64,000 nt of DNA from Phycisphaerales bacterium (GTDB lineage: Bacteria > Planctomycetota > Phycisphaerae > Sedimentisphaerales > Anaerobacaceae). The first letter of the stretch is position 1. Each line of letters begins with the position of its first letter. Location: positions 49,423-113,422 of the forward strand of contig JBDKRX010000019.1 in the NCBI GenBank assembly GCA_039683175.1, given 5' to 3'. Below the pieces are notes generated by a model that saw only the letters and a program-made list of their open reading frames with translations, searched no databases and had not been told where the DNA came from. Below are positions 4,263-60,876 of this stretch, one piece after another. The position numbers and the translations under genes are program-made.

Positions 4263-4274
4263 CCGGCCGGAGGC

Positions 4275-4432
4275 CGGAAATCCGAAATTCGAAGCACGAA
4301 ATGGGAAACAAATCCAAAGGACCGAAATTCAAATGACGGAAACGCTATCGCCCGTCGAATGATCCGTTTCGAATTCTGGATTCGGATCATTCGTGCTTGT
4401 TTCGGATTTCGAAATTCGGATTTCGGGTTTTC
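4275..4432. repeat. heptad-periodic palindromic intergenic element, copy A
   Basis: Left arm GGAAATCCGAAATTCGAAGCACGAAATGGGAAACAAATCCAAAGGACCGAAATTCAAATGACGGAAACG, ~19-nt centre, right arm CCGTTTCGAATTCTGGATTCGGATCATTCGTGCTTGTTTCGGATTTCGAAATTCGGATTTCGGG. The arms are imperfect reverse complements. Related copies lie near 14029, 19211, 47603, 49081 and 58141. Confidence 0.9.
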
Positions 4433-10310: not shown

Positions 10311-10325
10311 GGGACCTATGGTGTG
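10281..10325. repeat. tandem 9-mer array (CATAGGACC GATAGGACG CATAGGACT CATGGGACC TATGG), copy K1
   Basis: Period-9 repeat read directly. Lies just downstream of the pdxA stop (10335) and over the annotated rsmA start. Related arrays lie near 19992 and 22561. Confidence 0.75.
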
Positions 10326-11435: not shown

Positions 11436-11528
11436 TTACGAATTACGATTTACGAATTACGATTTACGACTCAGATCCCGGCTCGGCGAGAGCCAAATCG
11501 CAAATCATAAATCGTAAATCACAAATCC
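11436..11528. repeat. palindromic spacer element with TTACGAN heptad arms
   Basis: TTTACGAATTACGATTTACGAATTACGATTTACGAC ... AAATCGCAAATCATAAATCGTAAATCACAAATCC. Fills the whole ribE-pdxA spacer. The arms are imperfect reverse complements. Confidence 0.8.
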
Positions 11529-14028: not shown

Positions 14029-14184
14029 GAAGCACGAATGTCGAAATTCGAAATCCGAAACAAATTCAAAGGACCGAAGTCCAAATGACCGAAACGCTGT
14101 CGCCCATCCGGATGTCCGTTTTGGATTTCGAGCTTTGAGCCTTCGTGCTTGTTTCGAATTTCGAAATTCGGATTTCGAATTTAC
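14029..14184. repeat. heptad-periodic palindromic intergenic element, copy B
   Basis: GAAGCACGAATGTCGAAATTCGAAATCCGAAACAAATTCAAAGGACCGAAGTCCAAATGACCGAAACG ... CCGTTTTGGATTTCGAGCTTTGAGCCTTCGTGCTTGTTTCGAATTTCGAAATTCGGATTTCGAA. Begins directly after the TAA stop at 14028. Confidence 0.9.
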
Positions 14185-14202
14185 GACAGGTAGGAGTATT
14201 GA

Positions 14203-19210: not shown

Positions 19211-19368
19211 GTCTGAAATTCGAAGCACGAAACCCGAAATCCGAAACAAATTCCAAGGACCGAAATTCCAATGACCGAAACGCGGTCGCCCGCCGGGGTG
19301 CCGTTTGGGATTTTGGATTTCGAGCCTTCGTGTTTGTTTCGGATTTCGAGTTTCGGATTTCGTGCTTG
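19211..19368. repeat. heptad-periodic palindromic intergenic element, copy C
   Basis: CTGAAATTCGAAGCACGAAACCCGAAATCCGAAACAAATTCCAAGGACCGAAATTCCAATGACCGAAACG ... CCGTTTGGGATTTTGGATTTCGAGCCTTCGTGTTTGTTTCGGATTTCGAGTTTCGGATTTCGTGCTTG. Confidence 0.9.
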
Positions 19369-22560: not shown

Positions 22561-22612
22561 GCATGGAACCGCAGCATGGGACCGATAGGACCCGTGGGAC
22601 GTATGGGATGAA
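22561..22612. repeat. tandem 9-mer array (CATGGGACC GATAGGACC CGTGGGACG TATGGGATG), copy K2
   Basis: Period-9 units of the same type as K1, 30-80 nt downstream of the glyA stop (22641). Confidence 0.7.
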
Positions 22613-30007: not shown

Positions 30008-30035
30008 CCCCACACGACTTCTGATGGGCTCCGTT

Positions 30036-30159
30036 GATCTCGGACCTTGCATCCTGCAACATCCTGCAAGAAGGCTCGTAATCCGGTTCTTCGCTTTTGC
30101 CCCTCCATTCGGCCCGGAGACCGGACGATATGCGCTGCGGCCGCAGAGGGTCTTGCGGC
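30036..30159 (+). promoter_or_regulatory. conserved inter-paralog leader block 1
   Basis: GATCTCGGACCTT..GAAGGCTCGTAATCCGGTT..CTCCATT..GGAGACCGGACGATA..GGCCGCAGAGGGTCTTGCGGC aligns with 32267-32390. Confidence 0.5.
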
Positions 30160-30198
30160 GATGGGTCACTGCCTTTTCGAACGACACACGGAGTTGCT

Positions 30199-32238: not shown

Positions 32239-32266
32239 TCGCCTGCAACTTCCGACAAGCCCTGTC

Positions 32267-32390
32267 GATCTCGGACCTTCCATGACGCGACATCGCACTG
32301 GAAGGCCCGTAATCCCGTTCCGCGCCCCGGCTGCTCCATTGCAGGCGGAAACGGGACGATAGGAATTGGGGCCGCAGACGGTCTTGCGGC
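32267..32390 (+). promoter_or_regulatory. conserved inter-paralog leader block 2
   Basis: GATCTCGGACCTT..GAAGGCCCGTAATCCCGTT..CTCCATT..GGAAACGGGACGATA..GGCCGCAGACGGTCTTGCGGC. Confidence 0.5.
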
Positions 32391-32418
32391 CGGGTATGAC
32401 GGTCGTCTGCCGAACGGC

Positions 32419-34473
32419 ATGTATGGGGTGGTTGTGACTGCCGGAAAGACCTTGTGGATTCTGATCCTGTTCCTCGGGCTCAGTGCGTCTGCACGAGCCG
32501 GCGCGGACGGTCTTTCGTCGACGGAACCGAGCCAGGCGGTCCAGGACGAGAGCTTCTTCGACATGTCCATCGAGGAGCTGATGGACGTGCGCATCGATAC
32601 CGTGTATGGTGCCTCGAAACGTGCTCAGCGGCTTGACGAGGCGCCCGCGTCGGCCACCGTGGTGACCGCCGAGGAGATCCGGCGGTACGGCTATCGCACC
32701 CTGGCGGACATCCTCCAGAGCGCCCCAGGTTTCTACATGAACTACGACCGGATGGCCCACTACGTGGGAACCCGAGGGTTCCGCAGGCCGGGCGACTTCG
32801 ACACGCGAATCCTCGTGCTGATCGACGGTCACAAGATGAATGACAGCGTCTCGGGCGCCCCTCCCAGCGGCACGGAGTTCCCGCTTGACGTGGAGCTGAT
32901 CGACAAGGTCGAGATCATTCGCGGTCCGGGCTCCTCGCTCTACGGCAGCAACGCGGTGCTGGCCATCGTCAACGTGATCACCAAGCGGGGCAGCGCGGTC
33001 GACAGCCTGGAATTGAGCGGCCAGACCGGCAGTTTCGACTCGCGGAAAGGCCGGATCACCTACGGCAAGCTCCTCGGAAAGGACGTGGATCTGCTGTTGT
33101 CCGCGAGCACGTATTCCAGCGACGGTCCGACGTTGTACTACCCGGAGTTCGACGCGCCGGAAACGAACGACGGCTGGGTGGACAACGACGATAGTGAGAA
33201 CACCAACCTCGCCGCCGTAGTGTCCTGGGGCGACTTCTCGTTCGATCTGATCCATGCGGATCGCGACAAAGGCATTCCCGTGATCGTGGCCAGCACCGCC
33301 TTCGGCGATTCCCGGACGCGGGCCCTCAGCGAAGGGACGCTGGCCGGCCTGACGTGGACGCGCGACCTCTCCGAACGATACACGGCCATGGCGCGACTTG
33401 TCTACTGCCAGGGGGACACGGACATCCGCCATGCGCTGAACCTCGCTCCGGACGGGGCGGACCCCGTCGTGGTGCTCAATCGCAATTCCTGGATAAGCCG
33501 CTGGTGGGAGGCGGAATTCGGCGTGACCGGCAACCCGGTCGAGGGACACACCGTGACGGTCGGCACGGAGTTCCGCTACGACGCCCGACAGGACCAAAAG
33601 CAGTGGTTTGGAAACGATGTCTATCTGGATTCCTCCGAAGACAGCCGCAGTTGGGGCGTCTACCTTCAGGATGAGGTGAAACTGCTCGAGAAGCTGACCT
33701 TTATTGGGAGCGTCCGACATGATGAGTACGAGACCTGCGGCGGCGCCACGAGTCCGCGTCTGGGACTGATCTATGACGTGTGGGATCAGACGACCTTGAA
33801 GCTTCTCTATGGCGAAGCGTTTCGCGCGCCGTCGGCCTATGAGCTGTACTATGAAAACGCCGCAGGTGGCCAGAAGGCGGCCCACGAACTGGACCCCGGA
33901 CGGATTCAGACGTACGAAGCGATCGTCGAGCATCGGTTCAGCCAACATCTCCAGGCGACCGCCTGCGGATTCCACTACATCTTGAAGGATCTGGTCGACA
34001 CGGTTGTCGATCCGGCCGATGGATTGCTCGTGTTCCAGAATCGGGCCGAAGTGCAGGCCGAAGGCGTCGAGCTGGCGCTGCACGGTCGATGGGAGCAGGG
34101 TCTGCAATCCCGTGTCAGCTACTCGTACGTCGAGGCGCGGGACGAGACCGCCGACGAGACCCTGGTGAACTCGCCGAAGCACCTGGTGAAACTGAACCTG
34201 ATCAAGCCGGTTGTGCCGGAGCGGCTCTTCGCCGGGCTGGAGGTCCTCTACAACAGCAAGGTCAAGACCGTGGCCGGTGAGTACGCGGACGATTTCACGC
34301 TGACGAATCTGACGCTGACCTACACCAGTGTCTCGAAGCGGCTGGAGATCGCCGCCAGTGTATATAACCTCTTCGACGTGGACTATGCGTTCCCGAGTTT
34401 CACAGGGAGCGTTCAGGACACGATCGTGCAGGACGGACGAACGTTCCGGGTCGGGCTGACCTATCGATTCTAA
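32419..34473 (+). CDS. TonB-dependent receptor-like outer-membrane beta-barrel, paralog 3
   Basis: Same architecture. FFDMSIEELMDVRIDTVYGASK, plug motifs, terminal RVGLTYRF. Confidence 0.8.
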   Translation: MYGVVVTAGKTLWILILFLGLSASARAGADGLSSTEPSQAVQDESFFDMSIEELMDVRIDTVYGASKRAQRLDEAPASATVVTAEEIRRYGYRTLADILQSAPGFYMNYDRMAHYVGTRGFRRPGDFDTRILVLIDGHKMNDSVSGAPPSGTEFPLDVELIDKVEIIRGPGSSLYGSNAVLAIVNVITKRGSAVDSLELSGQTGSFDSRKGRITYGKLLGKDVDLLLSASTYSSDGPTLYYPEFDAPETNDGWVDNDDSENTNLAAVVSWGDFSFDLIHADRDKGIPVIVASTAFGDSRTRALSEGTLAGLTWTRDLSERYTAMARLVYCQGDTDIRHALNLAPDGADPVVVLNRNSWISRWWEAEFGVTGNPVEGHTVTVGTEFRYDARQDQKQWFGNDVYLDSSEDSRSWGVYLQDEVKLLEKLTFIGSVRHDEYETCGGATSPRLGLIYDVWDQTTLKLLYGEAFRAPSAYELYYENAAGGQKAAHELDPGRIQTYEAIVEHRFSQHLQATACGFHYILKDLVDTVVDPADGLLVFQNRAEVQAEGVELALHGRWEQGLQSRVSYSYVEARDETADETLVNSPKHLVKLNLIKPVVPERLFAGLEVLYNSKVKTVAGEYADDFTLTNLTLTYTSVSKRLEIAASVYNLFDVDYAFPSFTGSVQDTIVQDGRTFRVGLTYRF

Positions 34474-34708
34474 ACGTCCCCAACCTCCGATAAACTCCGC
34501 CCATTCGGGTCATGTTCCGTGTGATATCCCACGAAATGCCCTCGAATCGGGTTTCCCTTCTTTGCGACTCCATTCGCACCTGAATCTGGTCGATGTTCAC
34601 TCCGAAAGGCCGCTGGCGGTCCGTTCGGCGTGTGTCGGCGAACCACTCGATGCGAGCGGAAGAAGACGAACGATTGACGGTATGGATCGACCCCGTGGTC
34701 ATGACGTA

Positions 34709-35408: not shown

Positions 35409-37538
35409 ATGTGGGTATACACGCATGACCTGTCGCTCAAGCACAAGCTGGTCGCGATTGTCATGCTCACGTGTATCGCCGCGCTGACGCTCACGGGTGG
35501 TGTCTTTGCCGCCTGGGAATGGACCATTCTCCGCCGTGGCGTGGTCCAGGACCTGACGACGCACGCGAACATCCTGGCGGACAACTGCAGAGCCGCGATC
35601 ACCTTCCGCGACGCCACCGACGCCGGCGAAATCCTCCAGACGGTCGAAGCGGTCCCCTCCATCGTCATTGCCTGCGTGTACACTGCCGATGGGGAGTTGC
35701 TCGCCGCCTACGTGCAGAAGGGAACCAAGGCCGCGATGCCCTCGGTGCAGGAACTGAAGGACCATCCCGTTTTTGCCCATGGGTTTCTCACGCTCACGCG
35801 GCCCGTATGTCTCGATGAGGAGCGGATCGGCACCGTCTGTGTGCGGCAGAGTCTCGGTTTCATGTACACGAGGCTCCATCGCGGCGCGATCGTGATTCTG
35901 GGCATTCTGTTTCTGTCGTCCGTGGCTGCGTACATGGTCTCCTCCAGGCTCCAGAGGATCATCTCGCATCCCATTCTCCACCTGGCCGATGTGGCGCGAC
36001 TGGTTTCGGAGAAACGCCGGTATTCCGTGCGAGCCGAGCGGCATGGCAGCGACGAGGTTGGCCTGTTGATCGACGCCTTCAATGAGATGCTCGAACAGAT
36101 CGAGCAGCGGGACGCCGCGCTCGTCGACGCCAACGAGCAGTTGGAGGCCCGGGTCCAGGAGCGGACCGCCGAGCTGACCACGGCGAACAGAAACCTGATC
36201 CGCGAGATCATGTTCCGCAAGCAGGCCGAGCAGGTCCTCATGCAGAGGACGGAATCCCTGGTCAATCACCAGAGAACGCTGTTGCGGCTCGCCAAGGAAA
36301 TCAAGGGCGACCTGCAAGCGACGATGAAGATGGCGACCGAAGAGGCCGCCAAGACCCTGGGGGTCGAGCAAGTCAGCATCTGGTTCTTTCACGAGCAGTC
36401 CTCTGAGCTGGTGTGCGAGCAGTCGTACAGTCTCAGCGGAAAAGACCGGGGCGCCGGCCTGCGGATGCGGGTGTCCGACTACCCGGTGTATTTCGACGCG
36501 ATCGAGAACAGCCGCATTCTGGCGGCCAACAACGCGCGGGAAGACCCTCGCACCCAGGCTTTCGCCGACACCTACTTCGCGCCGCTGGGGGTCGTGTCCG
36601 TGATCGACGTTCCGATCCGTCTCCACGCGAAACTGCTGGGCGTGATGTCCTATGAGCACACCGGGACGATGCGCGAGTGGTCCCTGGAGGAGCAGGACTT
36701 CGCCGCCTCGGTGGCGGACATGATCGCCTTGCAGGTGGAATCGAACGAGCGTCGCAAGCTGGAGCGCGCCCTGGCGAAGGCCAACGAGCATCTGGCCGAA
36801 ACCGTGCGGGACCTGCGCCGCTCGAACAAGGAACTGCAGGATTTCGCCTATGTCGCGGCCCACGATCTGAAGGCGCCGCTGCGCGGGATCGGTACGCTCA
36901 CCGACTGGATTGCCTCGGATTACGCCGACCGCTTCGATGAGCAGGGCCGTCAGCAGTTGTCCATGCTCAAGGGCCGTGTCTCGCGGCTCTCCGAGCTCAT
37001 CGACGGCATCCTGCACTACTCGGAAATCGGCCGGGTGGCCAACCGCCAGGAACAGGTGGATCTGAACCATCTTGTTCCGGAGGTGATCGCTCTACTGGAT
37101 CCGCCGGCGCATGTCGAGGTGGCGGTCCAGGGGCTGTTGCCGGTCGTCGTCTGCGAGAAGGTCCGCGTAGGGCAGGTCTTCCGGAACCTGATCGACAACG
37201 CGATCAAGTATATGGACAAGGCCCACGGACGAATCGAGATCGGTTGTTTGGAGCAGTTGGGATTCTGGAGGTTCTCCATCTCCGACAATGGCCCGGGGAT
37301 CGATGCCAAGTACTTCGAGAAGATCTTTCAGATGTTCCAGACGCTTGCTCCTCGGGACGAGCGGGAGAGCACCGGCATCGGCCTGGCGGTCGTCAAGAAG
37401 ATCGTCGATCTGTGCGGCGGAACCATCTGGGTCGAATCGAGCGTGGGCACAGGAAGCACGTTCTTCTTCACGCTCCCCAAACGGGTGGCGACGGCAGAGA
37501 AGGATGCATTCACTCCAGGCAGTGTGAGCCTGAATTGA
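35409..37538 (+). CDS. membrane sensor histidine kinase (CHASE8-like sensor, HAMP, coiled coil, GAF-like, HisKA, HATPase)
   Basis: Two TM segments flank a sensor region of the type that accompanies DUF4154 genes. H-box FAYVAAHDLKAPLRGI. NLIDNAIKYM, DNGPGI, GIGLAVVKKIV. No receiver domain. Confidence 0.8.
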   Translation: MWVYTHDLSLKHKLVAIVMLTCIAALTLTGGVFAAWEWTILRRGVVQDLTTHANILADNCRAAITFRDATDAGEILQTVEAVPSIVIACVYTADGELLAAYVQKGTKAAMPSVQELKDHPVFAHGFLTLTRPVCLDEERIGTVCVRQSLGFMYTRLHRGAIVILGILFLSSVAAYMVSSRLQRIISHPILHLADVARLVSEKRRYSVRAERHGSDEVGLLIDAFNEMLEQIEQRDAALVDANEQLEARVQERTAELTTANRNLIREIMFRKQAEQVLMQRTESLVNHQRTLLRLAKEIKGDLQATMKMATEEAAKTLGVEQVSIWFFHEQSSELVCEQSYSLSGKDRGAGLRMRVSDYPVYFDAIENSRILAANNAREDPRTQAFADTYFAPLGVVSVIDVPIRLHAKLLGVMSYEHTGTMREWSLEEQDFAASVADMIALQVESNERRKLERALAKANEHLAETVRDLRRSNKELQDFAYVAAHDLKAPLRGIGTLTDWIASDYADRFDEQGRQQLSMLKGRVSRLSELIDGILHYSEIGRVANRQEQVDLNHLVPEVIALLDPPAHVEVAVQGLLPVVVCEKVRVGQVFRNLIDNAIKYMDKAHGRIEIGCLEQLGFWRFSISDNGPGIDAKYFEKIFQMFQTLAPRDERESTGIGLAVVKKIVDLCGGTIWVESSVGTGSTFFFTLPKRVATAEKDAFTPGSVSLN

Positions 37539-37556
37539 TGGGAAAGGGTTAGGACG

Positions 37557-39410
37557 ATGTCCGGCAAGATCGGCTGCAGACAGATCTGTGGCGACGACCT
37601 ATACACGTCGGCCAGGGAATGCGAAAACCAGTCGCTCATGGAGGAGAATGAACGGCTCAGGCAGCAGGTGCAGGATCATGCAGAGGCGCACGCCCATGTG
37701 AAGGAACTGATCGCTCGCCTGGATGAAGCCGATGCGGTCCTCCGCACGGAGATCGAGCGGCGGCGCCGGCTGGAGGAACAACTCCAGCGGATGCTGAGCC
37801 GCGGAGGCGTCGGGGCCGACGACCGAACCGCCGAACTGGTCGCCACAAACGAGCGGCTGGTCAGGGAACTCACGGAACGCGCACGGGGCGAAGCCGCCCT
37901 GCGCGAGCGAGATCACCGTCTGCACGACGTGTTGAACAGCATTGTTACAGGCGTGCTGATTATCGACTGCGAAAGCCGGCAGATCGTGGACGTGAACCCC
38001 CACGCTGCCGCAGCGATTGGCTTGCCGAAGGAACAGATCGTCGGCAGGGTCTGTCACCAGTTTATCTGCCCCGCCCAGAAAGGGAGCTGCCCGATCACCG
38101 ACCTGGGCCAGACCGTGGACCGATCGGAACGCGTCTTGCTGGGCCATGGCGGCGCTCACATTCCGATTCTCAAGAGCGTGGTTCCCGTGACGTGGCAGGG
38201 GCGCGAGTACCTGATCGAGAGCTTCATCGACATCGCGCGGCTCACCCGGGTGGAAGACGAGGCCAGGGAGTCGCTCTCGCTGCTCGAAGCCGCGCTGGAA
38301 TCCATGGCCGACGGCCTGCTCGTTGTGGACGGCTTCGGCAAGATCAAGGAATACAACCGGCAATTCCAGGAACTGTGGGGATTGTCGGACTCCGTTCTCG
38401 ACACGCGGGACGACAATCTGGCCTTGGCCTCTGCGACGCCTCGGTTGCGGGACCCGGAGGCGTTCCTCCGCAGCGTCCACGGATTGTATGAACAGCGCGA
38501 GGAGGAGGGCCACGATCTCATCGAATTCCAGGATGGTCGCATCGTGGAATACTACTCGAAGCCCCAGCGGATCGGCGAGCAGGTCGTCGGTCGCGTATGG
38601 AGCTTCCGCGACATCACGGAGAAACACACGGCGGAGAGGAAGCAAACCGCGTTGCTGCAACGGGTGGCCCAGATCAACGAGGAGCTGACCCACTTCGCCT
38701 ACGTGGTCTCGCACGACTTGAAGGCCCCGCTTCGCGGCATCAAGCTCATTGCGGAATGGCTGTGCGCCGACTACGCGGACAAGCTGGGTGACGACGCCAA
38801 GGAGCAGCTTGATCTGCTCCAGAGCCGTGTCGCCCGGATGTACAACCTGATCGAGGGCATCCTGCAATACTCCCGCGTGGGACGGATCAAGGAAGAGACG
38901 GTGGACGTGGACCTCAACGCCTTGCTCCCGAGCATCATCGATGGCATCGCCCCACCCGAGCATATCCACGTCACGGTCGAGCCCGGTCTGCCTGCGGTCG
39001 AATGCGAAAGGACGCGCATCACCCAGGTGTTCCAGAACCTGTTGACCAACGCGGTGAAGTTCATGGACAAACCGGTCGGCGAGATCCGGGTCGGGTGCGT
39101 CGAGGACGGCGACCTCTGGCAGTTCCATATCGTGGACAACGGGCCGGGAATCGAAGAGAAGTACTTCGACCGCATCTTCAAGCTGTTCCAGACGCTCAGG
39201 CCGCGGGATGAGTTCGAGAGCACCGGCGTCGGCCTGGCGCTGGTCAAGAAGATCGTCGAGATGTACGGCGGGCGGATCTGGGTCGAATCGGAGGTCGGCC
39301 GTGGCAGCACGTTTTTCTTCACATTCCCGAGGAAGCACGGAGCGGATGCGTCGGGGTCTGCTGCCGGGGAGGCTGTCCGTTCCTGTGGCTGTGCGGCGCA
39401 GGGGGCGTAG
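37557..39410 (+). CDS. cytoplasmic PAS-domain sensor histidine kinase
   Basis: N-terminal coiled coil and two PAS-like regions. H-box FAYVVSHDLKAPLRGI. NLLTNAVKFM, DNGPGI, GVGLALVKKIV. No TM segment. The start may be the ATG at 37638. Confidence 0.8.
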   Translation: MSGKIGCRQICGDDLYTSARECENQSLMEENERLRQQVQDHAEAHAHVKELIARLDEADAVLRTEIERRRRLEEQLQRMLSRGGVGADDRTAELVATNERLVRELTERARGEAALRERDHRLHDVLNSIVTGVLIIDCESRQIVDVNPHAAAAIGLPKEQIVGRVCHQFICPAQKGSCPITDLGQTVDRSERVLLGHGGAHIPILKSVVPVTWQGREYLIESFIDIARLTRVEDEARESLSLLEAALESMADGLLVVDGFGKIKEYNRQFQELWGLSDSVLDTRDDNLALASATPRLRDPEAFLRSVHGLYEQREEEGHDLIEFQDGRIVEYYSKPQRIGEQVVGRVWSFRDITEKHTAERKQTALLQRVAQINEELTHFAYVVSHDLKAPLRGIKLIAEWLCADYADKLGDDAKEQLDLLQSRVARMYNLIEGILQYSRVGRIKEETVDVDLNALLPSIIDGIAPPEHIHVTVEPGLPAVECERTRITQVFQNLLTNAVKFMDKPVGEIRVGCVEDGDLWQFHIVDNGPGIEEKYFDRIFKLFQTLRPRDEFESTGVGLALVKKIVEMYGGRIWVESEVGRGSTFFFTFPRKHGADASGSAAGEAVRSCGCAAQGA

Positions 39411-39428
39411 GTCGAAAACCAACCTTCT

Positions 39429-41765
39429 GTGCATGGAGGGAATGGGGGTATTATGAGTCAGGACCAAAGACAACTGGGAATTGGGTTCCTCGAACCACAG
39501 GCCGGCCCGCCGCAATGGGAAACGGCGCTGGTGGAAGCGGTTCCCATGCCCGCTGCACTGGCGACCGCGGAGGGGCGCGTGTTGTGTGCCAACCGTCGCC
39601 TGTTCGATGCGGCGTACAGCGATCCCGCCGGCTTCGAATGCCATCGTCCTGCCGAAGACCGGGTGGGGGACTTGTTGGAGGGATGCGAGGGACTTCGTCC
39701 GTTGCTTGATGAGGCGGCCCGCACGGGCCATGCTGTCGGCGAGGTCCGGTTCGTCTCTTCGCGATCCGATGGGATCAGCCCGACGGTACAGGCGCACGCC
39801 GGAGTGTTGGCGGCCGGATCGGGGCAGGACACGATGATCCTGCTCACTTTCGACTGCTCCGGCTCGGCTGAGACGTTGCGGCAGGAACTCGCCATGTGCG
39901 AGAACAAGTATCGCGAGCTGGTTCAGGCGTCCGTCGACCTGGTCTTCGTCATGGATCTCGACGGCTGCTTGACTTTTGTGAACAAATCCTGGCAGCAGCA
40001 CGTCGGATATACGAATGACGAGATTGTCGGCACGAGCGGGCTGACTCTGGTGTCTCCCGAATGTCATCCGGCATGTCTTGCCTCGCTGCGACGGGCCGCA
40101 GCGGGCGAACCCGTCGAGAACCTCCAGTTCCGCGCCGCCACCAAAGACGGCAGGCACATGGACGTTCTTGCGAACCTCGCGCCGATACGCGACGCCCGCG
40201 GGCACGTCGTTCAGGTCATCGGCAGCGGTCGGGACATCACGGAGCTGAAACAGACCCAGGAACAACTGGCGAGTTCCCAGGAGCGTCTCCGTATCCTCTT
40301 CGAATACGCGCCGGACGCGTACTACCTGAGCGATCTGATGGGCACCTTCCTCGACGGCAACAGGGCCGCCGAGGAACTGTGCGGCTATCGCAGGGAGGAG
40401 CTCATCGGCAAAAACTTCCTGAAGCTGGACCTCCTGCCGAGGAGACAGTTGCCGCGGGCCGCAGGGTGTCTGGCCAAGAATGCCCTCGGGCATCCGGTGG
40501 GCCCCGTCGAGTTCCATCTGCGTCGCGGCGACCACACCCACGTTCACGTCGAAATCCGGACGTATCCCGTGCAGATCGAGGGGCAGAATGTGATCCTCGG
40601 GATCGCACGGGACATCTCGGATCGCAAGAAGGCGGAGGATGCGCTCAAAGAGAGCGAAGAGAAGTTCAAGGTGATCTTCGAGGAGGCGCACGAGGGCATC
40701 GCCTACCTCGACGACGTCGGGCGTGTGCTCGACGTGAACAAGAAGACGCTGGAGATTCTCCAACAAACGAAAGAGGAGACGGTCGGAAAGCACTTCATCG
40801 AGCTGGGCATCCTGGATCCGGGCGATGTCCCGCGGTTCATGACTCATTTCCAGCAGGTGCTCCTGGGCACGCTGGAACCGCTGAACCTTTCGATCAAGAA
40901 CAAGCAGGGCGAGACGCTCTTCCTGGAGTGCAGCGCTTCCGTGGTTCACAAGAAGGCGGGGGCTCGCGGCCTGGTGATTCTGCTTCGTGACGTCACCGAG
41001 CGCAAGCGGGCCGAGATACAACTGGAGGAACTCAATCGCAACCTGCAGGATACGGTCCGGGACCTGGAGCGGTCGAACCAGGAACTCCGGGATTTCGCCC
41101 ACGTGGCGGCGCACGACCTCAAAGCGCCGCTGCGCGGCATCGCCACGCTGGCTGAATGGATTTCCCAGGACTGCGCCGACAAGATCGACGACCGGGGACG
41201 GGAGAACCTGGCTCTTATGCGGCAGCGGGTGGATCGGATGATCCTGTTGATTGACGGGATTCTGCGCTATGCCGAGATCGGATACGGCGACTGCCTCGTC
41301 GAGAGCATTGACAGCGGCCAGGTGGTCGCGGAGGTCATCGAGCAGATTGCCCCTCCGTCGCATATCGAAATCCGGGTCGAGCGTCCCCTTCCGACGGTGT
41401 TCTGCGAGAGAATCACGCTGACCCAGGTATTCCAGAACCTGATCAGCAATGCCGTCAAGTACATGGACAAGCCGCAAGGCGAGATTCGGATCGCCGCGGC
41501 GGAGGAAGGCGACTTCTGGAGATTCACCGTGGCCGACAACGGCATAGGCATCGAATCGAGACACTTCGATCTGCTCTTCCAGATGTTCCAGACGCTCGGG
41601 TCCGTTCCTCATCCCGACAGCACCGGGATCGGTCTGGCCGTGGTGAAGAAGATCGTGCAGATGCATGGCGGGCAGGTCGGGGTCGAATCCAAGCCGGGTC
41701 ATGGAAGCACGTTCTTCTTCACGTTGCCCCAACACAACGAAAGGATGATGCATGAGAAACGATAA
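39429..41765 (+). CDS. cytoplasmic multi-PAS sensor histidine kinase
   Basis: Several PAS-like repeats separated by coiled linkers. H-box FAHVAAHDLKAPLRGI. NLISNAVKYM, DNGIGI, GIGLAVVKKIV. The start may be the ATG at 39453. Confidence 0.8.
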   Translation: MHGGNGGIMSQDQRQLGIGFLEPQAGPPQWETALVEAVPMPAALATAEGRVLCANRRLFDAAYSDPAGFECHRPAEDRVGDLLEGCEGLRPLLDEAARTGHAVGEVRFVSSRSDGISPTVQAHAGVLAAGSGQDTMILLTFDCSGSAETLRQELAMCENKYRELVQASVDLVFVMDLDGCLTFVNKSWQQHVGYTNDEIVGTSGLTLVSPECHPACLASLRRAAAGEPVENLQFRAATKDGRHMDVLANLAPIRDARGHVVQVIGSGRDITELKQTQEQLASSQERLRILFEYAPDAYYLSDLMGTFLDGNRAAEELCGYRREELIGKNFLKLDLLPRRQLPRAAGCLAKNALGHPVGPVEFHLRRGDHTHVHVEIRTYPVQIEGQNVILGIARDISDRKKAEDALKESEEKFKVIFEEAHEGIAYLDDVGRVLDVNKKTLEILQQTKEETVGKHFIELGILDPGDVPRFMTHFQQVLLGTLEPLNLSIKNKQGETLFLECSASVVHKKAGARGLVILLRDVTERKRAEIQLEELNRNLQDTVRDLERSNQELRDFAHVAAHDLKAPLRGIATLAEWISQDCADKIDDRGRENLALMRQRVDRMILLIDGILRYAEIGYGDCLVESIDSGQVVAEVIEQIAPPSHIEIRVERPLPTVFCERITLTQVFQNLISNAVKYMDKPQGEIRIAAAEEGDFWRFTVADNGIGIESRHFDLLFQMFQTLGSVPHPDSTGIGLAVVKKIVQMHGGQVGVESKPGHGSTFFFTLPQHNERMMHEKR

Positions 41766-45954: not shown

Positions 45955-46010
45955 TGTGGCACGGGCATTTCGCCCGTGATCCCGAATCCATGGGCGTCGC
46001 CCATGCTACT
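45955..46010 (+). repeat. twin stem-loop module CACGGGCA-CGCCCGTG / CATGGGCG-GCCCATG-CTACT, copy 2
   Basis: Same two hairpins, order and GCTACT tail as 12296-12353. Ends about 14 nt before the leuA ATG. Confidence 0.75.
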
Positions 46011-46023
46011 TGGAGAGCCAACG

Positions 46024-47589
46024 ATGTCAGGTGAAAAAGTATTGATTTTCGATACCACGCTCCGTGACGGCGAGCAGTCGCCCGGGGCGGCCATGTCGAT
46101 CCCGCAGAAGCTCGAGATTGCGCGGCAATTGGCCGTGCTCGGAGTCGATATCATCGAAGCGGGCTTCCCGATCTCCTCGCCCGCGCAGTTCGAGGCGACG
46201 AAGCTCGTCGCCGAGCAGGTGAAGGGCCCCACAATCGCGGCGCTGGCCCGCGCCAACGCCCTCGATATCGAGTCGGCGGGCAAGGCGATTGCCCCTGCCA
46301 AGAAGAAGCGAATCCACACGTTCATCGCGACCTCGCCGATCCACATGAAGCACAAGCTCAAGAAGGAGCCCGACCAGGTTCTGAAGATGGCGGTCGAGGC
46401 GATCCGGTGCGCGAAGGCTTTCACGAACGATATCGAGTTCTCGCCGGAGGATGCCTGCCGGAGCGAGATCCCGTTCCTCATGGAGGTCCTGGCGGCGGTG
46501 ATCGAGGCCGGCGCGACCACGCTGAACATCCCCGACACGGTTGGCTATGTGTTGCCCTATGAGTACGGGCAACTCATCGCAAAACTCAAGAGCGACGTCG
46601 CGGGCATCGACAAGTGCGTCATCAGCACCCACTGCCACAACGATCTGGGCATGGCGGTCGCAAACTCTCTGGCCGGCGTCCGCAACGGCGCCCGCCAGGT
46701 CGAGTGCACCGTCAACGGGCTCGGCGAGCGGGCGGGCAACGCCGCGATGGAAGAGGTCGTCATGGCGATCCGCACCCGCCAGGACTTCTTCAGCCAGGGA
46801 GGCGCGGACGGTTTGTCCACGAACATCAACACGAAGGAGATCTTCCGGACGAGCCAGCTCGTCTCGCAGCTCACGGGTTTTGTGATCCAGCCCAACAAGG
46901 CGATCGTCGGCGCCAACGCCTTCGCGCACGAGTCGGGCATCCACGTGGACGGCATCCTCAAGGAACGGACGACGTACGAGATCATGACGCCGGAGACGAT
47001 TGGCTTGGGCGGTTCGCGAATGGTGCTCGGTCGTCACACCGGCCGCCACGGCTTCGCCGACCGCTGCAAGCAACTCGGCTACAAGCTCACGAAGGACGAG
47101 CTCGAGCAGGCCTACCAGCGATTCCTGGTGATCGCCGACAAGAAGAAGGAGATCTTCGACGAGGACGTGGCAGCCCTCGTCAACGACGAGATCCGCGTGG
47201 TCGAACAAACGTATGTGCTCGATTACCTGCACGTCGCGTCGGGCACCGGAACGCTGCCGACGGCCAGTGTGAAGATGCGCGTCAAGGGCGAGACGAAGAT
47301 CGCTGTCGCATTCGGCGACGGGCCGGTCGACGCCGCCTACGAGGCGATTCGCCAGGCGATGAACCTGCGGCCCAAGCTCGAAGAGTACTCGATCCGCGCC
47401 ATTACGGCGGGCACCGAGGCCCTGGGCGAGGCGACGGTCCGCATTCGCGAGGACGGCCGGGCCTTCATCGGCCGGGGCGTCTCGACGGACATCATCGAGG
47501 CCAGCGCCAAGGCCTACGTGGACGCGGTCAACCGCATGGTCGCGGCCCAGGCGACGTCGGAACAGACGCAAGTGAACGGACAACCATAG
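46024..47589 (+). CDS. leuA: 2-isopropylmalate synthase
   Basis: IFDTTLRDGEQSPG, HCHNDLGMAVANSLAG, and a C-terminal LeuA allosteric domain. ATG at 46024. Confidence 0.9.
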   Translation: MSGEKVLIFDTTLRDGEQSPGAAMSIPQKLEIARQLAVLGVDIIEAGFPISSPAQFEATKLVAEQVKGPTIAALARANALDIESAGKAIAPAKKKRIHTFIATSPIHMKHKLKKEPDQVLKMAVEAIRCAKAFTNDIEFSPEDACRSEIPFLMEVLAAVIEAGATTLNIPDTVGYVLPYEYGQLIAKLKSDVAGIDKCVISTHCHNDLGMAVANSLAGVRNGARQVECTVNGLGERAGNAAMEEVVMAIRTRQDFFSQGGADGLSTNINTKEIFRTSQLVSQLTGFVIQPNKAIVGANAFAHESGIHVDGILKERTTYEIMTPETIGLGGSRMVLGRHTGRHGFADRCKQLGYKLTKDELEQAYQRFLVIADKKKEIFDEDVAALVNDEIRVVEQTYVLDYLHVASGTGTLPTASVKMRVKGETKIAVAFGDGPVDAAYEAIRQAMNLRPKLEEYSIRAITAGTEALGEATVRIREDGRAFIGRGVSTDIIEASAKAYVDAVNRMVAAQATSEQTQVNGQP

Positions 47590-47602
47590 CCGCCTGGGAG
47601 GC

Positions 47603-47777
47603 GGAAATACGAATACCGAAATCCGAAATTCGAAACAAGCACGAATGACCGAAATCTAAAATTCAAAACAACATGATATAGAGGACCGCGAGCATGCGTT
47701 CGCACAGAGTGTTTCGGTCATTTGGGTTTCGAGTTTTGGATTTGTTTCGGATTTCGAGATTCGGATTTCGGATTTTC
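47603..47777. repeat. heptad-periodic palindromic intergenic element, copy D (inverted relative to A-C; contains a gene remnant)
   Basis: Left arm CGAAATCCGAAATTCGAAACAAGCACGAATGACCGAAATCTAAAATTCAAAACAAC. 40-nt centre homologous to the 5' end of the four-helix-bundle ORF in copy E. Right arm GTTTCGGTCATTTGGGTTTCGAGTTTTGGATTTGTTTCGGATTTCGAGATTCGGATTTCGG. Confidence 0.9.
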
Positions 47778-47817
47778 TCAAGAATCAAGGTGTCTGAGAA
47801 CTGACAAGGGACTAACG

Positions 47818-49080
<1,263 letters not shown>

Positions 49081-49553
49081 AAAAATCCGAATATCAAAAT
49101 ACGAAATTCGAAACAAACTCGAATGACAGAAAACGAAAATCCCAAACAGTATGATCTGGAGGATCGGACGTTTGCCTTCGCACGGGATGTGCGCGAGTTT
49201 GTGAAAGGGTTGAAACGGACGATGGCCAACGTCGAGGATGGCAAGCAGCTCATCAGGGCGTCCGGCTCTGTCGGGGCCAACTACATTGAGGCAAACGAGG
49301 CCTTGAGCAAGAAGGATTTCCTGATGCGGGTCAGGATATGCAGAAAGGAATCGAAGGAAAGTCGGTACTGGCTCAGGCTTGTTGATGCCTGCGACGATCA
49401 GAAGCAGGAAGTCCGAAGGCAGGGGTTGATCCAAGAAGCCACGGAGTTGATGAGTATCTTCGGCGCGATTGTGCGCAAGAGCGAATAGCGTTTCGGTCAT
49501 TTGGGTTTTGAGTTTTGGATTTGTTTCGGATTTCGAAATTCGGATTTCGAGTT
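49081..49553 (+). mobile_element. palindromic element copy E carrying a four-helix-bundle gene (putative IVS-like or mobile cassette)
   Basis: Left arm 49081-49130 (AAAAATCCGAATATCAAAATACGAAATTCGAAACAAACTCGAATGACAGAAAACG). Right arm 49489-49553 (GCGTTTCGGTCATTTGGGTTTTGAGTTTTGGATTTGTTTCGGATTTCGAAATTCGGATTTCGAG). The arms match copy D. Mobility is inferred, not shown. Confidence 0.45.
49123..49488 (+). CDS. four-helix-bundle protein (TIGR02436 / 23S rRNA intervening-sequence protein / Avd family)
   Basis: 121 aa. Family-typical LEDRTFAFARDV...GSVGANYIEANEALSKKDF..RICRKESKESRYWLRLV. The start codon lies inside the left arm and the stop abuts the right arm. Confidence 0.8.
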   Translation: MTENENPKQYDLEDRTFAFARDVREFVKGLKRTMANVEDGKQLIRASGSVGANYIEANEALSKKDFLMRVRICRKESKESRYWLRLVDACDDQKQEVRRQGLIQEATELMSIFGAIVRKSE

Positions 49554-49575
49554 TAAGCGTTTTTGTGAGGATGTT

Positions 49576-50061
49576 ATGGCAAAGGCACATGTGTATAAGC
49601 GTGATCACATCAATACCGACGAGATCATCCCGGCTCGGTATTTGAATACGGACAACGAGGCCGAGTTGGCGAAGTACTGTCTGGAGGACCTGGACAAGGA
49701 CTTTGTGAAGAAAGCCAAGCCGGGCGATGTCATCGTCGCGGGGGATGACTTCGGCTGCGGATCCAGCCGGGAGCACGCGGTCTGGGCCATCCGCGGGGCC
49801 AAGGTGCAGACGGTCATCGCCAGGTCGTTCGCACGGATCTTCTACCGTAACGCGATCGACTGCGGGTTCTATCTGATCGAGTCGGCCGAGGCGGTGGACA
49901 AGATCAAGGATGGCGACGAGGTCGAGATCGACTACAACGCCGGCGTGATCCGGGACAAGACGAGCGGCAACCAGATCCAGTTCATGCCGCTGCCGGATTT
50001 TGCGCTCGAGATCATCCGCGACGGCGGACTGCTCAATCACATCATGAAAAAGACCGCGTGA
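49576..50061 (+). CDS. leuD: 3-isopropylmalate dehydratase small subunit
   Basis: [49 protein letters not shown] and ATG at 49576. Confidence 0.9.
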
Positions 50062-51572: not shown

Positions 51573-51581
51573 CCTGTAGCT

Positions 51582-51953
51582 ATGGCAAGCACAAGGCAAA
51601 AGGGACTGAAGTATCTGAACGGTTTTGCGGGGTCGCCGCGACCGGTCTGTATCGCGATATCAAGGTTCTTTCCGCCCGCGCAGTCCTGGACCGGCAGGGC
51701 GGCTTGGTGGTTTGATCTACCCATCGACAAGATAGAACGACTACCACACGAGGATTATTATCTCTTGGGGGAGTTGGAGCGAGGCGGGTACGTGAGGCTG
51801 AAAGTCTCAAACCAATTCCTCCTTGCGAATCGGGGACATTTCGTCACCAAGTACCAGCGCCGGATACGGCTTCATCTGGCGGCGTACCGTGAGAACTGGT
51901 TGGTAGATGAGAGATCACTTGATCGTGTGGACTTCTCGAAGTTTGAAGTGTGA
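51582..51953 (+). CDS. hypothetical protein (123 aa) in an AT-richer islet
   Basis: ORF followed by a hairpin. No recognisable motif. Composition differs from its neighbours. Confidence 0.4.
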   Translation: MASTRQKGLKYLNGFAGSPRPVCIAISRFFPPAQSWTGRAAWWFDLPIDKIERLPHEDYYLLGELERGGYVRLKVSNQFLLANRGHFVTKYQRRIRLHLAAYRENWLVDERSLDRVDFSKFEV

Positions 51954-51968
51954 TGGGAAGTCGGAATG

Positions 51969-52007
51969 CAGGCCCGAAGCGGGCCTGTGTGGGAAGTTTT
52001 TCGCTTT
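51969..52007 (+). terminator. weak intrinsic terminator candidate
   Basis: CAGGCCC-GAAGC-GGGCCTG, then a T-rich tract (GTTTTTCGCTTT) starting about 8 nt later. Confidence 0.35.
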
Positions 52008-52283
52008 AGGGCCTCCAGCGTGATACGCGAGCGGCTCGCTCGCTTGAGGGTGTGCGAAGCACCCTTGCTGCTGGTGGCTGCAATGCGATAAACTCCCGCC
52101 GCCCGGACGCGCAGCGGCCCTCGGGCCGAGGGCGGCGGAATCCGGATCGGTCCGTAGTCCGCCAGTCGTTCGTGGGTGTGTGGTCTTGCGAAATTCGGTG
52201 TTGGCCGAGCAAATGCGGTGTGCTCCGCACACCGTCTTCGATAACAGAATGTGAGAGAGTGACCAAGAAAGGAAAATCGTTCG

Positions 52284-58091: not shown

Positions 58092-58140
58092 AGCCGCACG
58101 CGGCCGAACGGCCCGAGGGCCGTCGCCCGGCGATAGCCGC

Positions 58141-58203
58141 GTTTCGGGTTTTGGACTTGAGTCATTGGAATTTGTTTTGGATTTGGTGCTTCGGATTTGG
58201 GAT
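58141..58203 (-). repeat. half copy (single arm) of the heptad-periodic element, copy F
   Basis: The minus strand reads CCCAAATCCGAAGCACCAAATCCAAAACAAATTCCAATGACTCAAGTCCAAAACCCGAAAC, which is left-arm type. It encodes the last 14 codons and the stop of the upstream gene. Confidence 0.75.
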
Positions 58204-60876
58204 GTTCTCGTCCAGGATCGTGACAGTCCCCCGGTCGCCGTCCACGCGGAGCAGTTGGCCGGTCCGGATGATCTTGGATGCGGAGCCGACATTGACGACG
58301 GCCGGGATGCCGTACTCGCGGGCGATGATCGCGCCGTGCGAGAGGACGCCGCCCAGGTCCATGACCACGCCGGCCGCCGGCAGGAAGTAAGGCGTCCACG
58401 CCGGGTCGGTGAACGGGGCGACGAGAATCTCGCCGGCCTCGACGTGCCCGTGATCGTCGGTGCGGAGAATGACGCGGGCCTTGCCCGTCACGATGCCGGG
58501 CGATACGGCTATCCCTTTCCACTCCCTGGCGGCATCGTCGATCTGGGGCAGCACGTGTTTCCGTGGATCGAATCGGCCTATCACGACCGGCGGCGGCGTA
58601 CAGGCCTTGTTTCGCTCGTAGTCCGGCCGTCGAGCGGCGATTCGCGGCCTGGCATCGAAATCCGCGCGACCCTGCGAGAGAGCCTCGATCTCGCCGAGCT
58701 CCAGAAAGAAGATGTCCTCGGCAAGAGGCAGGACGCCGTTCTTGTGCAGCCTGTCGCCCAGCGTCAGGAGCGCCCGGCGCAAAGCCGCCAACTGGCGGAC
58801 GACCTCGTTCTTCCAGTTCTCGCGGTCCGCGGCGAGCTTGCGCACCGCCGTGAGCGACCAGTTGAAGATCGCTCGCTTGATCGGATTCCTCAGGCGTTTG
58901 CGGCATCGCTCGGTCAGATCGTCGCGTTCGGCTGCCAGCCGGCGGCGGTTATCGAGTGGGCTCACGTTCCCGATGGAACGCAGATAGTTGCGTACCATGT
59001 CGAGGACGTAGTCGGGCCTCTCGGACCAGCGGGCGTTGGCGAGTTCCAGTTCGCCCCGGCAATGGTGTCCGTGGTCGGTCATAAACCGCTCCCAGGCTTC
59101 GAGGAACCGGCGGCCGGGCTCCGTCCCGCGGAGTCTCTCTCGCGCCGGACCCCACGAATCCTCGGACAGCAGCGTCCCCTCCGTCTGTGCGTCGCCATGC
59201 GCCGATTCCGCAAGACGCCAGAGTTCCAGGCCGGCTTCGGTATCTGCGATCCCGCCCTGGGCGGCCAGGAGTCGATAGCCCAAGGTGAGGTCCTGGTCGC
59301 CCAGCCAACGCCGGCAGGCCCGGTCGAACAGCAGGATCGCCGGAGCGCTCGTAACCAGGTACAACAGGTCCAGGTCGTCCACGTTCTGCCGCAAGGTTGC
59401 CGGCACGAGCCTCGCAAGGTCCGCCGTGCTCATGGCCTCCATGTCGATCGCGAGAAGCTCTTCATTACGCGCCTTGATCCTGGCACGGGCCCGAGCCCCT
59501 CGCTTGGGCGAATGACTGAACAGGGTGTAGATGACCCGCGGCCACGAGAGAATGTACCTGGGCCAACTGAAACCGAGATCCGGCAGATCCTCGTCGGGGA
59601 AATCGAACTCGCCGAGGTGGTACATTCTCACATGCCCACCGCCGAACATCGCCTCGGACCTGGCTGCGTCGTCGGATCTGATGCCAAACGGCAGAACGGC
59701 GGCCATTCCCACATTGATGCTGAAATACACCCGGCCCGCCACCAGGCCGACAACCGGGCTCTTGTTGATGTCCGCGCCCACCAGACGGCAGACCGAGCCA
59801 AACATGGGGTAGAACAGAAGTTGAATCATCGACCACGTGGCGGGAGTCACAACATCCGGAAAAACTTCGCCCACGTTCGTGTTGGCCCAACCCTGGCGGT
59901 CTTCCCAGGACCTGGGTTGCGGGATCGCCGTGATGGGCCGGGTCTGGAGAAACCAAAGCGTGCCGTCGTGGATTGCCCACTCGATATCCTGTGGGCCGCC
60001 GAGCCTTCTCTCGATCCGTCGAACGGATCGGCCGAGCCTCCGGGCGGATTTCAGGTCGAGCGAGGGTTCGTCCCCCGCGAGGTTCTGGCGGATCCGCCTC
60101 AGGTTCTTCTTCACCAGCAGGATACGATCGGGCTGGACCTTGCCGGAAACCAACGCCTCGCCGAGACCCCGGCACGACTCGATCACGATCCGGCTGCGGC
60201 TGCCTGTGACCGGATCGAGCGTGAAAGCGACCCCGGCGACGTCCGGCTCGATCTGTTGCTGCACGATGACTGCCATCTCGACCTGTTGGTGGTCGATCCC
60301 GTTTCGCCGGCGGTACTCATACGCCCGCTCAGTCCACAACGACGCCCAGCATCTCTTGATTGCGTCGAGACACTCCTCCAGCGACTTCACGCCAAGAACT
60401 GTCTCATACTGCCCGGCGAACGAGTGCCCGGGCAGGTCCTCCGCCGTGGCCGAGGAACGCACGGCTGCGACGGAGGCCCCCAGCCGGCGATATGCGGCTG
60501 CGATCTCCGCACGGAAGGCGTCTGTCAGAGGCACGCCCTTGATGAGTCTGCGAATCTCCTCCAGTGCCTGCTGCACACCGTCGGGGCGGACGTCGATGCC
60601 ATCCGCGATCGCTGCAATCTGTGGACGAAGGCCGTTTGCATCGAGATGCTCCGCAAACGCAGCCGTCGTTACGAAGAAGCACGGAGGGACTTGCATGCCC
60701 AAGCAGCGAAGCATGCACAGACTCGCCGCCTTCGGGCCGACCAGACTTCGATCCGTGGCCGACAACCTGCCGTTCAACCAGTAGACGGCTCTCTCATCCA
60801 CGATGATCCTCACTACATCATGTACCAGGCAACCACCTGGAATACGAGGATAGCCGCATTTCCCAGGGAGTGCCAC
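58162..60876 (-). CDS. PEP-utilising enzyme family protein, rifampicin-phosphotransferase-like architecture (ATP-grasp N-terminus + swivel His domain, no PEP/pyruvate barrel)
   Basis: N-terminal PPDK_N-like VGPKAASLCML...VPPCFFVTT...SSATAEDLPGHSFAGQYET. C-terminal mobile domain GIAVSPGIVTGKARVI...ILVAPFTDPAWTPYF...GGVLSHGAIIAREYGIPAV. The start may be the GTG at 60813. Confidence 0.75.
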   Translation of the reverse strand: MALPGKCGYPRIPGGCLVHDVVRIIVDERAVYWLNGRLSATDRSLVGPKAASLCMLRCLGMQVPPCFFVTTAAFAEHLDANGLRPQIAAIADGIDVRPDGVQQALEEIRRLIKGVPLTDAFRAEIAAAYRRLGASVAAVRSSATAEDLPGHSFAGQYETVLGVKSLEECLDAIKRCWASLWTERAYEYRRRNGIDHQQVEMAVIVQQQIEPDVAGVAFTLDPVTGSRSRIVIESCRGLGEALVSGKVQPDRILLVKKNLRRIRQNLAGDEPSLDLKSARRLGRSVRRIERRLGGPQDIEWAIHDGTLWFLQTRPITAIPQPRSWEDRQGWANTNVGEVFPDVVTPATWSMIQLLFYPMFGSVCRLVGADINKSPVVGLVAGRVYFSINVGMAAVLPFGIRSDDAARSEAMFGGGHVRMYHLGEFDFPDEDLPDLGFSWPRYILSWPRVIYTLFSHSPKRGARARARIKARNEELLAIDMEAMSTADLARLVPATLRQNVDDLDLLYLVTSAPAILLFDRACRRWLGDQDLTLGYRLLAAQGGIADTEAGLELWRLAESAHGDAQTEGTLLSEDSWGPARERLRGTEPGRRFLEAWERFMTDHGHHCRGELELANARWSERPDYVLDMVRNYLRSIGNVSPLDNRRRLAAERDDLTERCRKRLRNPIKRAIFNWSLTAVRKLAADRENWKNEVVRQLAALRRALLTLGDRLHKNGVLPLAEDIFFLELGEIEALSQGRADFDARPRIAARRPDYERNKACTPPPVVIGRFDPRKHVLPQIDDAAREWKGIAVSPGIVTGKARVILRTDDHGHVEAGEILVAPFTDPAWTPYFLPAAGVVMDLGGVLSHGAIIAREYGIPAVVNVGSASKIIRTGQLLRVDGDRGTVTILDENIPNPKHQIQNKFQ

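Follow-up and report, generated by a model that had tools for sequence, protein, structure and literature searches.

A hairpin in a leuA–leuC spacer as the probable in-place remnant of a four-helix-bundle gene cassette

INTRODUCTION

The closest described relatives of the elements analysed here are the gene-containing intervening sequences (IVS) of bacterial 23S rRNA. The Coxiella IVS carries a gene of the same family (PF05635) with heptameric repeats (GACAGAT) before the ATG, and forms a stem that is cut by RNase III; its open reading frame (ORF) was reported as probably not expressed (PMC4990558). PF05635 proteins also resemble Avd, the accessory protein of diversity-generating retroelements (DGRs), through a homologous pentamer-forming four-helix-bundle fold (PMC10053308). 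PF05635/TIGR02436 is a very large family with solved structures, and no function is known for it outside DGRs.

Here we describe kin of the IVS in protein-coding operons: a family of hairpins in operon spacers, of which neither Rfam nor the literature searched (the relevant papers being those on the Coxiella IVS and on DGRs) gives a description. The DNA analysed was a single stretch of 64,000 nt (the window). A preliminary description of its sequence had proposed that one hairpin, copy D in the leuA–leuC spacer, keeps a 5' fragment of a gene that is intact in a second hairpin, copy E, and is a MITE-like internal-deletion derivative of a gene-carrying parent.

RESULTS

Position, parts and fold of copy D

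The leuA–leuC spacer is 228 nt long and comprises a GC stem-loop, the 173-nt element and 40 nt of host spacer:

45976..47589, + strand: leuA (2-isopropylmalate synthase), host gene 5' of D; Pfam HMGL-like, HCS_D2 and LeuA_dimer
47587-47589, + strand: leuA stop codon
47590..47604, + strand: small GC stem-loop CCGCC-TGGGA-GGCGG, abutting the leuA stop codon and outside the left arm; paired in the RNA fold
47605-47777, + strand: copy D, whole element; 173 nt, AT-rich, in the leuA–leuC spacer
47605..47671, + strand: left arm of D, CGAAAYY heptads running into the former gene start; nhmmer match to positions 3-111 of the gene-bearing model
47645..47659, + strand: former start codon in a frame now broken, ATG ACC GAA ATC TAA, aligning with ATG ACC GAA ACT CAA of the intact L127 orthologue
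47672..47711, + strand: remains of four-helix-bundle codons 10-23; 27/40 identical to E, 33/40 to L127_D, 28/40 to L126_D
47709..47713, no strand: putative deletion junction, ~295 nt missing from codon 24 to the stop codon; microhomology GTT or imperfect GAGT(A)GTT
47712..47777, + strand: right arm of D, TTTCGGTCATT..GTTTCGGATTTCGAGATTCGGATTTCGGATTTT; nhmmer match to model positions 407-473
47778..47817, + strand: host spacer outside the element, up to the leuC start; conserved to the right of the element in the L120, L121 and L123 spacers
47818..49080, + strand: leuC (isopropylmalate dehydratase large subunit), host gene 3' of D; Pfam Aconitase, E=3.6e-103

With a GC content of 0.40 (0.61 for the window), D has CGAAAYY heptads as its left arm, followed by a centre of 40 nt and by a right arm forming an imperfect inverted repeat of the left. 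The + strand RNA is predicted to form one long hairpin (−71 kcal/mol versus −49 ± 4 for shuffles; z=−5.4) in which the two arms pair, so that D has terminal inverted repeats forming a long stem around the position of the ORF, and tandem heptads adjoin the start codon. Only 14 codons of the gene are left, in a broken frame, and D is a relic rather than a coding member of the PF05635/TIGR02436 cassettes. Coding function is presumably absent, and any residual activity would sit in the hairpin.

At D and E, a consensus scan found neither promoter-like sites nor sites resembling an intrinsic terminator (a short GC-rich stem with a T run after it). Rfam gave no family either for the whole window at the gathering threshold or for 47400-49700 in E-value mode. 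GC-rich stem-loops (CCGCCTGGGAGGCGG, CCGGCCGGAGGCCGG) lie just ahead of the left arm, after the stop codon of the preceding gene, at window 47590-47604 and 4263-4277, the latter ahead of copy A, and at L013:~4505-4520; a similar one is found in the orthologous spacer of L120 (CCGCCCAGGGGGCGG). Such a stem-loop before some copies might protect the 3' end of the upstream mRNA after cleavage.

Copy E and the other hairpins of the window

The CGAAAYY heptad has 29 matches in the window (1.6 expected), clustered in five elements, copies A to E; a sixth, half copy F, is listed with them here:

49083..49557, + strand: copy E, intact paralogous cassette in the leuC–leuD spacer; start codon in the stem
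49123-49488, + strand: E ORF, 121 aa; TIGR02436 E=5.6e-19, PF05635 E=5e-12
4276..4430, − strand: copy A, short and gene-less; inner part in the opposite orientation to that of D and E
14030..14185, − strand: copy B, short; inner part in the opposite orientation to that of D and E
19213..19367, − strand: copy C, short; missing from the orthologous L013 spacer
58138..58205, + strand: half copy F, right arm only; a member of the repeat family with weak nhmmer matches

Among the six copies in these 64 kb, the gene is present in E only. Its product passes the curated PF05635/TIGR02436 cut-offs (68.4 bits versus 24; 46.4 versus 33.8), the two profiles being named '23S rRNA-intervening sequence protein' (PF05635) and 'four helix bundle protein' (TIGR02436). 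It also matches PDB 2RLD (E=9.6e-11), and a Phycisphaerales MAG has a protein identical to it under the name 'four helix bundle protein'. Lying 1.3 kb downstream of D, E may supply the four-helix-bundle protein in trans.

When B was compared with its orthologous short copy on the syntenic contig L013 (L013:4520-4700), the outer arms were collinear and the inner AACAA...TTGTT segment was inverted, as expected from recombination between inverted arms.

Several other repeats were seen in the same DNA. A gene-less hairpin at window 11434-11526, with heptads ATTTACG/AATTACG paired with AAATCGT/AAATCAC and a GC-rich apex, may be a relic of a cassette of another four-helix-bundle subfamily. Runs of a 9-nt unit (GCATAGGAC / CGATAGGAC) at window 10271-10323 and 22574-22608 are another short-period repeat family of these genomes; a TAGGCC/ATAGGC palindrome akin to these units lies between arm stubs in the leuC–leuD spacer of L124 (L124:2464-2607). 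Short-form hairpins at L120:4883-5037 and L122:5820-5974 come right after a sulfatase gene and ahead of leuB; the corresponding sulfatase–leuB interval of the window (51573-52283) has no hairpin; it is a spacer of 712 nt that contains an ORF of 123 aa without annotation (51582-51953). The window also holds tandem paralogous arrays unrelated to the hairpins, at 27962-34499, 36798-41688 and 6025-9005; they comprise three ~2.23 kb copies (67-80% identity), additional repeats spaced 1.9-4.3 kb apart (65-76%) and four ~0.95 kb units.

The centre of D derives from the four-helix-bundle gene

D and E were anchored at a shared GAATGAC, from which both centres begin at the same 29-nt offset. The arms of D have the layout and orientation of those of the gene-bearing copy, as previously noted, and the 40-nt centre (47672-47711) matches codons 10-23 of the E gene (49150-49189, translated as YDLEDRTFAFARDV) at 27 of 40 ungapped positions. 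A hand count of 25 identities in the first 36 was reproduced. The arm segment ahead of the centre aligns too (23/29 over 29 nt), and the reading frame of D is indeed broken by a stop codon at the fifth position.

Could so short a match be fortuitous, or reflect a common functional RNA motif without descent? Just 40 nt are compared and the arms are repetitive. Against this, E is the best non-self match to the D centre among ~128,000 window positions (both strands; background mean 10.2 matches, sd 2.9; next best 24) and falls at the predicted register, and not one of 2000 dinucleotide shuffles reached its Smith-Waterman score (z=5.7). Several D–E differences are synonymous, and differences from intact genes in general track codon structure. 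The match to the intact same-site copy in L127 (L127_D, below) runs for 20 identical bases. Window rank, shuffles, codon pattern and the L127_D match together refute a chance or motif origin, to which we assign a negligible probability.

Intact genes at the orthologous site

The leuC neighbourhood was compared in eight relatives, all with a LeuC sharing 91-95% identity with that of the window. Two of these, L126 and L127 (LeuC 91-92% identical), have an intact 121-aa PF05635/TIGR02436 gene within the same hairpin in the leuA–leuC spacer (754-1119 and 266-631, respectively; the copies L126_D and L127_D); both genes pass the curated cut-off. L126 has a second intact PF05635 gene in its leuC–leuD spacer. 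In a multiple alignment, D was collinear with the intact same-site copies apart from a single large gap. The arms of D recur in E, L121, L126 and L127. In register, the D centre is identical to L127_D at 33/40 positions, to L126_D at 28/40 and to E at 27/40, and the Smith-Waterman score against L127_D has z=15.6. D and L127_D also have in common the lineage-specific codons for AFAQSV, where E has AFARDV.

The junction in D reads CAGAGTGTTTCGGTCATT. In the intact copy of L127, the corresponding sequences are CAGAGTGTTCGTGCG at codons 21-24 (5' side) and GAGCGAGTAGTTTCGGTCATT at the stop codon (3' side), with direct matches between GAGTGTT near codon 23 and GAGTAGTT at the stop codon. A loss of ~295 nt between short direct matches is a signature of slippage or microhomology-mediated deletion.

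Since intact copies occupy the same site and L127_D is the closer match, D would be the product of an in situ deletion in a parent other than E. Read from these alignments, D appears to be the eroded remnant of a gene cassette from which ~295 nt were deleted in place, and arrival as a shortened copy is disfavoured. The ancestor's leuA–leuC spacer would have held a cassette in which a ~120-aa PF05635/TIGR02436 gene lay within two inverted heptad-repeat arms of ~65 nt. A single ~295-nt deletion in the window lineage would then have removed codon 24 to the stop codon, leaving both arms, and a stop codon would have been gained later in the upstream frame. The preliminary description was therefore right to derive D from a gene-carrying element by internal deletion, as the intact 121-aa genes at the orthologous position in L126 and L127 indicate; as the parent, however, copy E or a transposed derivative of it gives way to an ancestral same-site copy.

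Decay states at two leu spacers

Across the leuA–leuC (D) and leuC–leuD (E) spacers of nine genomes, among which leuC third-position identity is 0.71-0.86, every state from intact gene to empty spacer was found:

Intact gene: L126_D, L127_D; window E, L121_E, L126_E, L123_E
5' fragment: window D, L120_D
Generic short hairpin: L121_D
Arm stubs: L127_E (79 nt), L122_E (58 nt), L125_D (62 nt); L120_E and L124_E, with other palindromes between the stubs
Empty spacer: L122_D (24 nt); L125_E (11 nt)

L120_D keeps the last few codons of the gene as well and has lost the inner left arm. Although both relics break near codons 22-24, they are identical at only 24/43 positions, which suggests that the window D and L120_D deletions were probably independent, or that conversion intervened. 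L121_D bears the common short-form centre (below), which simple local decay leaves unexplained.

In L123 (LeuC 94% identical), a different element subtype occupies the same two spacers (L123:2301-2500 and L123:3764-4222). Its heptads are CAAAATG/CATTTTG, every CpG having become CA in the left arm and TG in the right with pairing kept, and its PF05635 gene encodes 128 aa and is only distantly related. The leu-spacer elements of L123 and the other relatives have the same right-hand boundary. Replacement, homing to the same sites and conversion are all candidates for how this subtype came to be there. The leuC–leuD spacer of the closest relative (L120:2754-2907) has arm stubs around an unrelated palindrome, GTCATTGCGAGGAGCGCAGCGACGACGCAATC...GATTGCTTCGCTCCGCTCGCAATGAC, which resembles a repeat occurring in many bacterial phyla.

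Short copies and alternative origins of D

Gene-bearing copies are far fewer than short ones (in the sampled loci and the window, 7 full elements versus 148 others). One centre, ACGG-N10-GGGCGACAGCG, whose apex is a small GC palindrome that varies, is common to many planctomycete short forms; it occurs in window A, B and C and in L120:4883, L122:5820, L112, L028 and L093. Because this centre is common to unrelated sites, these short forms were either copied or converted as such. Whether GGGCGACAGCG comes from the gene 3' end, AGAGCGAATAGCG, is ambiguous, as the AGCG may be mere stem.

The preliminary description extended this origin to the short elements at large, a generalisation that proved weak, most short copies elsewhere having no gene-derived sequence. 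In an nhmmer extension test on 69 complete short forms of many phyla, 5 reach at least 15 nt into the gene 5' region, where shuffled centres average ~1 and never exceed 3. For the gene 3' region the number was 7 against a shuffle mean of 3.3, which is not significant. Given the modest 5' excess and the 3' null, a deletion origin is not claimed here for the short forms as a whole. Further clear relics are L120_D and L043 (Desulfobacterales), the latter with both gene ends kept, and L032:6938-7113 is probably another. Across all loci, the motif [YFH]D[LI]E[ED]R matched the intact genes and D only, and is too strict for finding other relics.

Two other routes to D were weighed. In the MITE-like one, D came already shortened, as a non-autonomous element mobilised in trans by a gene-bearing copy such as E. 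In its favour, short forms are in excess, the recurrence of one centre at many unrelated sites suggests that short forms can move or be copied, and the arms are conserved beyond neutral expectation. The analogy holds in structure, the short forms being small, gene-less elements with terminal inverted repeats in many copies; it fails at the gene-bearing relative, where the only domain of the gene product is PF05635, with no transposase or recombinase. A target-site duplication could not be recognised: none was readable between filled and empty orthologous spacers, where the junctions are too diverged, and an apparent AGGAA repeat at L127_E is arm plus ribosome-binding-site sequence. With intact copies in the orthologous site, and the relic in D nearer to these than to E, we regard transposition of a shortened copy as very unlikely. 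The alternative route is partial gene conversion, whereby a gene-less short hairpin came first and a tract from a gene-bearing copy added the 40 nt of ORF 5' sequence. Near-identical arms (93% identity between the right arms of D and E) would provide a substrate, the generic short form does occupy the leuA–leuC spacer of L121, and the window D and L120_D relics have diverged beyond what is expected of strict orthologues. The likeliest donor would nevertheless be E, in the same genome, whereas D is closer to the lineage at the orthologous site (33/40 versus 27/40), and the relic ends at a microhomology joining codon 23 to the stop-codon region, as deletion predicts; conversion is accordingly hard to credit. 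Overall, the explanation that we prefer, and with considerable confidence, is that a promoterless cassette decayed in place and left D as a non-coding wreck, the hairpin of which would act at the mRNA level.

A hairpin family of many phyla

D belongs to a little-described hairpin family of many bacterial phyla. Its right arm includes a 29-mer, TTGTTTCGRATTTCGANNTTCGGATTTCG (27 specified bases), that was found exactly in at least 119 contigs. Labels among the matches listed include Planctomycetota, Verrucomicrobiota, Desulfobacterota, Patescibacteria and Omnitrophota, as well as Aminicenantes, Armatimonadota, Dehalogenimonas, Hydrogenedentota and others. Viral contigs with the arm pattern numbered only two, making a phage vector for the hairpins unlikely.

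More than 8000 close homologues of the E protein were found, and the proteins of gene-bearing copies are ~65-87% identical across phyla. Intact genes have dN/dS values of 0.04-0.13, a sign of purifying selection on a gene that still functions where it is intact. The GC content at third codon positions is 0.63-0.71 in cassette genes and 0.87-0.93 in the host leuC. Between copies, identity is 84-98% in the G/U-rich right arm, 77-88% in the A/C-rich left arm and 49-70% at ORF third positions. All 11 gene-bearing copies examined were co-directional with both neighbouring genes, and in the six with positions noted the element starts 1-10 nt after the upstream stop codon.

RNA or DNA level

D is probably still transcribed within the leu operon mRNA, where it would fold into a stem of ~60 bp. 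By analogy with the 23S rRNA IVS, this stem is most likely a substrate of RNase III, whose cut would split the polycistronic mRNA between leuA and leuC. An intact cassette has its start codon within the stem, and in the predicted fold of L127_D AAAUGACCGAAACU pairs with AGUUUCGGUCAUUU just past the stop codon; translation of the four-helix-bundle gene would thus compete with folding and cleavage.

The two strands of the hairpins were also compared. Of 31 short copies with co-directional neighbouring genes, 21 form the stabler hairpin on the strand of the host mRNA and 10 on the other (mean difference −4.3 kcal/mol, Wilcoxon p=0.002; heuristic gene calls). The inner orientation was that of the host in 19 and opposite in 12, and the strand effect held in both. 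Arms-only hairpins of gene-bearing copies were more stable on the sense strand in 7/8. The greater conservation of the G/U-rich arm is expected if G·U pairs buffer changes one-sidedly. RNAalifold of 13 short forms gave an invariant outer stem with essentially no covariation, which makes it uninformative, and a count of G:T versus A:C mismatches in the four window copies used had no clear bias, the strand effect emerging only in the larger energy-based comparison of the 31 copies. Strand asymmetry and arm conservation point, modestly, to the transcript; the asymmetry could partly come from transcription-linked C-to-T mutation bias instead of selection.

The hairpin could instead act as DNA, with the arms serving as binding or recombination sites, or as cruciform palindromes, for the four-helix-bundle protein or a host enzyme, and the RNA hairpin a by-product. 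The exact right-arm 29-mers in many phyla fit such a role, as primary sequence is kept beyond what pairing needs. Each PF05635 subfamily also has its own heptad: CGAAAYY here, CAAAATG in L123, CAATGNN around a distant homologue in L117 and GACAGAT in Coxiella. The inverted inner segment of B relative to L013 is as arm recombination predicts, and the frequent deletions fit long DNA palindromes, in which deletions are typically frequent. Yet the asymmetry between strands is in favour of the transcribed one, conservation is higher in the G/U-rich than in the A/C-rich arm, which a double-stranded DNA site would not predict, and each of the 11 gene-bearing copies runs in the direction of its host operon. 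While we consider a purely DNA-level hairpin rather unlikely, primary-sequence conservation and subfamily heptads leave room for protein recognition or a DNA-level role.

DISCUSSION

A broader model can be put forward tentatively, as a possibility that we would not yet favour: hairpins with a present or past PF05635 gene may be cross-phylum selfish cassettes of operon spacers that travel on host transcripts, with the rRNA IVS as merely the special case noticed first. The protein would be a trans factor for its own heptads, in RNA or DNA, and the gene-less hairpins its dependants, kept by recognition.

Genes that ride heptad-repeat hairpins in ordinary operon spacers open the function of this protein family to experiment, and hairpins that outlast the gene, with arms steadier than synonymous sites, likewise make it approachable. 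This also connects the old puzzle of the rRNA intervening sequences with a broad class of repeats between genes. In annotating Planctomycetota and other phyla, such AT-rich hairpins, which would number in the hundreds per genome by extrapolation from six copies in 64 kb, could be grouped into a single family, where they would otherwise pass for unexplained spacers.

Like the 23S rRNA IVS of Coxiella burnetii and Leptospira ('S23p'), the present elements have a ~120-aa PF05635 ORF inside stem-forming terminal inverted repeats, tandem heptamers just 5' of the ATG, a start region in the stem and, as in some IVS strains, erosion of the ORF. The IVS, however, lie in helix 45 or 25 of the rRNA, whereas these elements lie in spacers of protein genes: D is between leuA and leuC, E between leuC and leuD and others elsewhere, and Rfam found no rRNA in the window. 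They are also multi-copy (six in 64 kb), their heptad is CGAAAYY rather than GACAGAT, and their intact ORFs are under strong purifying selection, unlike the probably unexpressed Coxiella ORF.

With MITEs they share the form of small AT-rich, gene-less elements with inverted-repeat ends that outnumber longer, same-ended, gene-bearing relatives, and some copies (D, L120_D, L043) would likewise have arisen by internal deletion. The longer relatives of MITEs encode a transposase, which is lacking in the present ones; here no target-site duplication was readable and D appears to have decayed in place. In DGRs, Avd accompanies a reverse transcriptase, template repeat and variable repeat, all absent alongside these cassettes, which stand alone between housekeeping genes.

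The ERIC/IRU elements of enterobacteria, the Correia/NEMIS elements of Neisseria and REP/BIME are similarly imperfect palindromes of ~100-170 nt in transcribed operon spacers, with size variants produced by internal insertion or deletion, and within mRNAs RNase III cleaves Correia elements. REP elements are associated with RAYT transposases, and no RAYT gene was found next to the gene-bearing copies examined here. What sets the present family apart from these palindromes is its gene-bearing form, with a four-helix-bundle gene between heptad-repeat arms.
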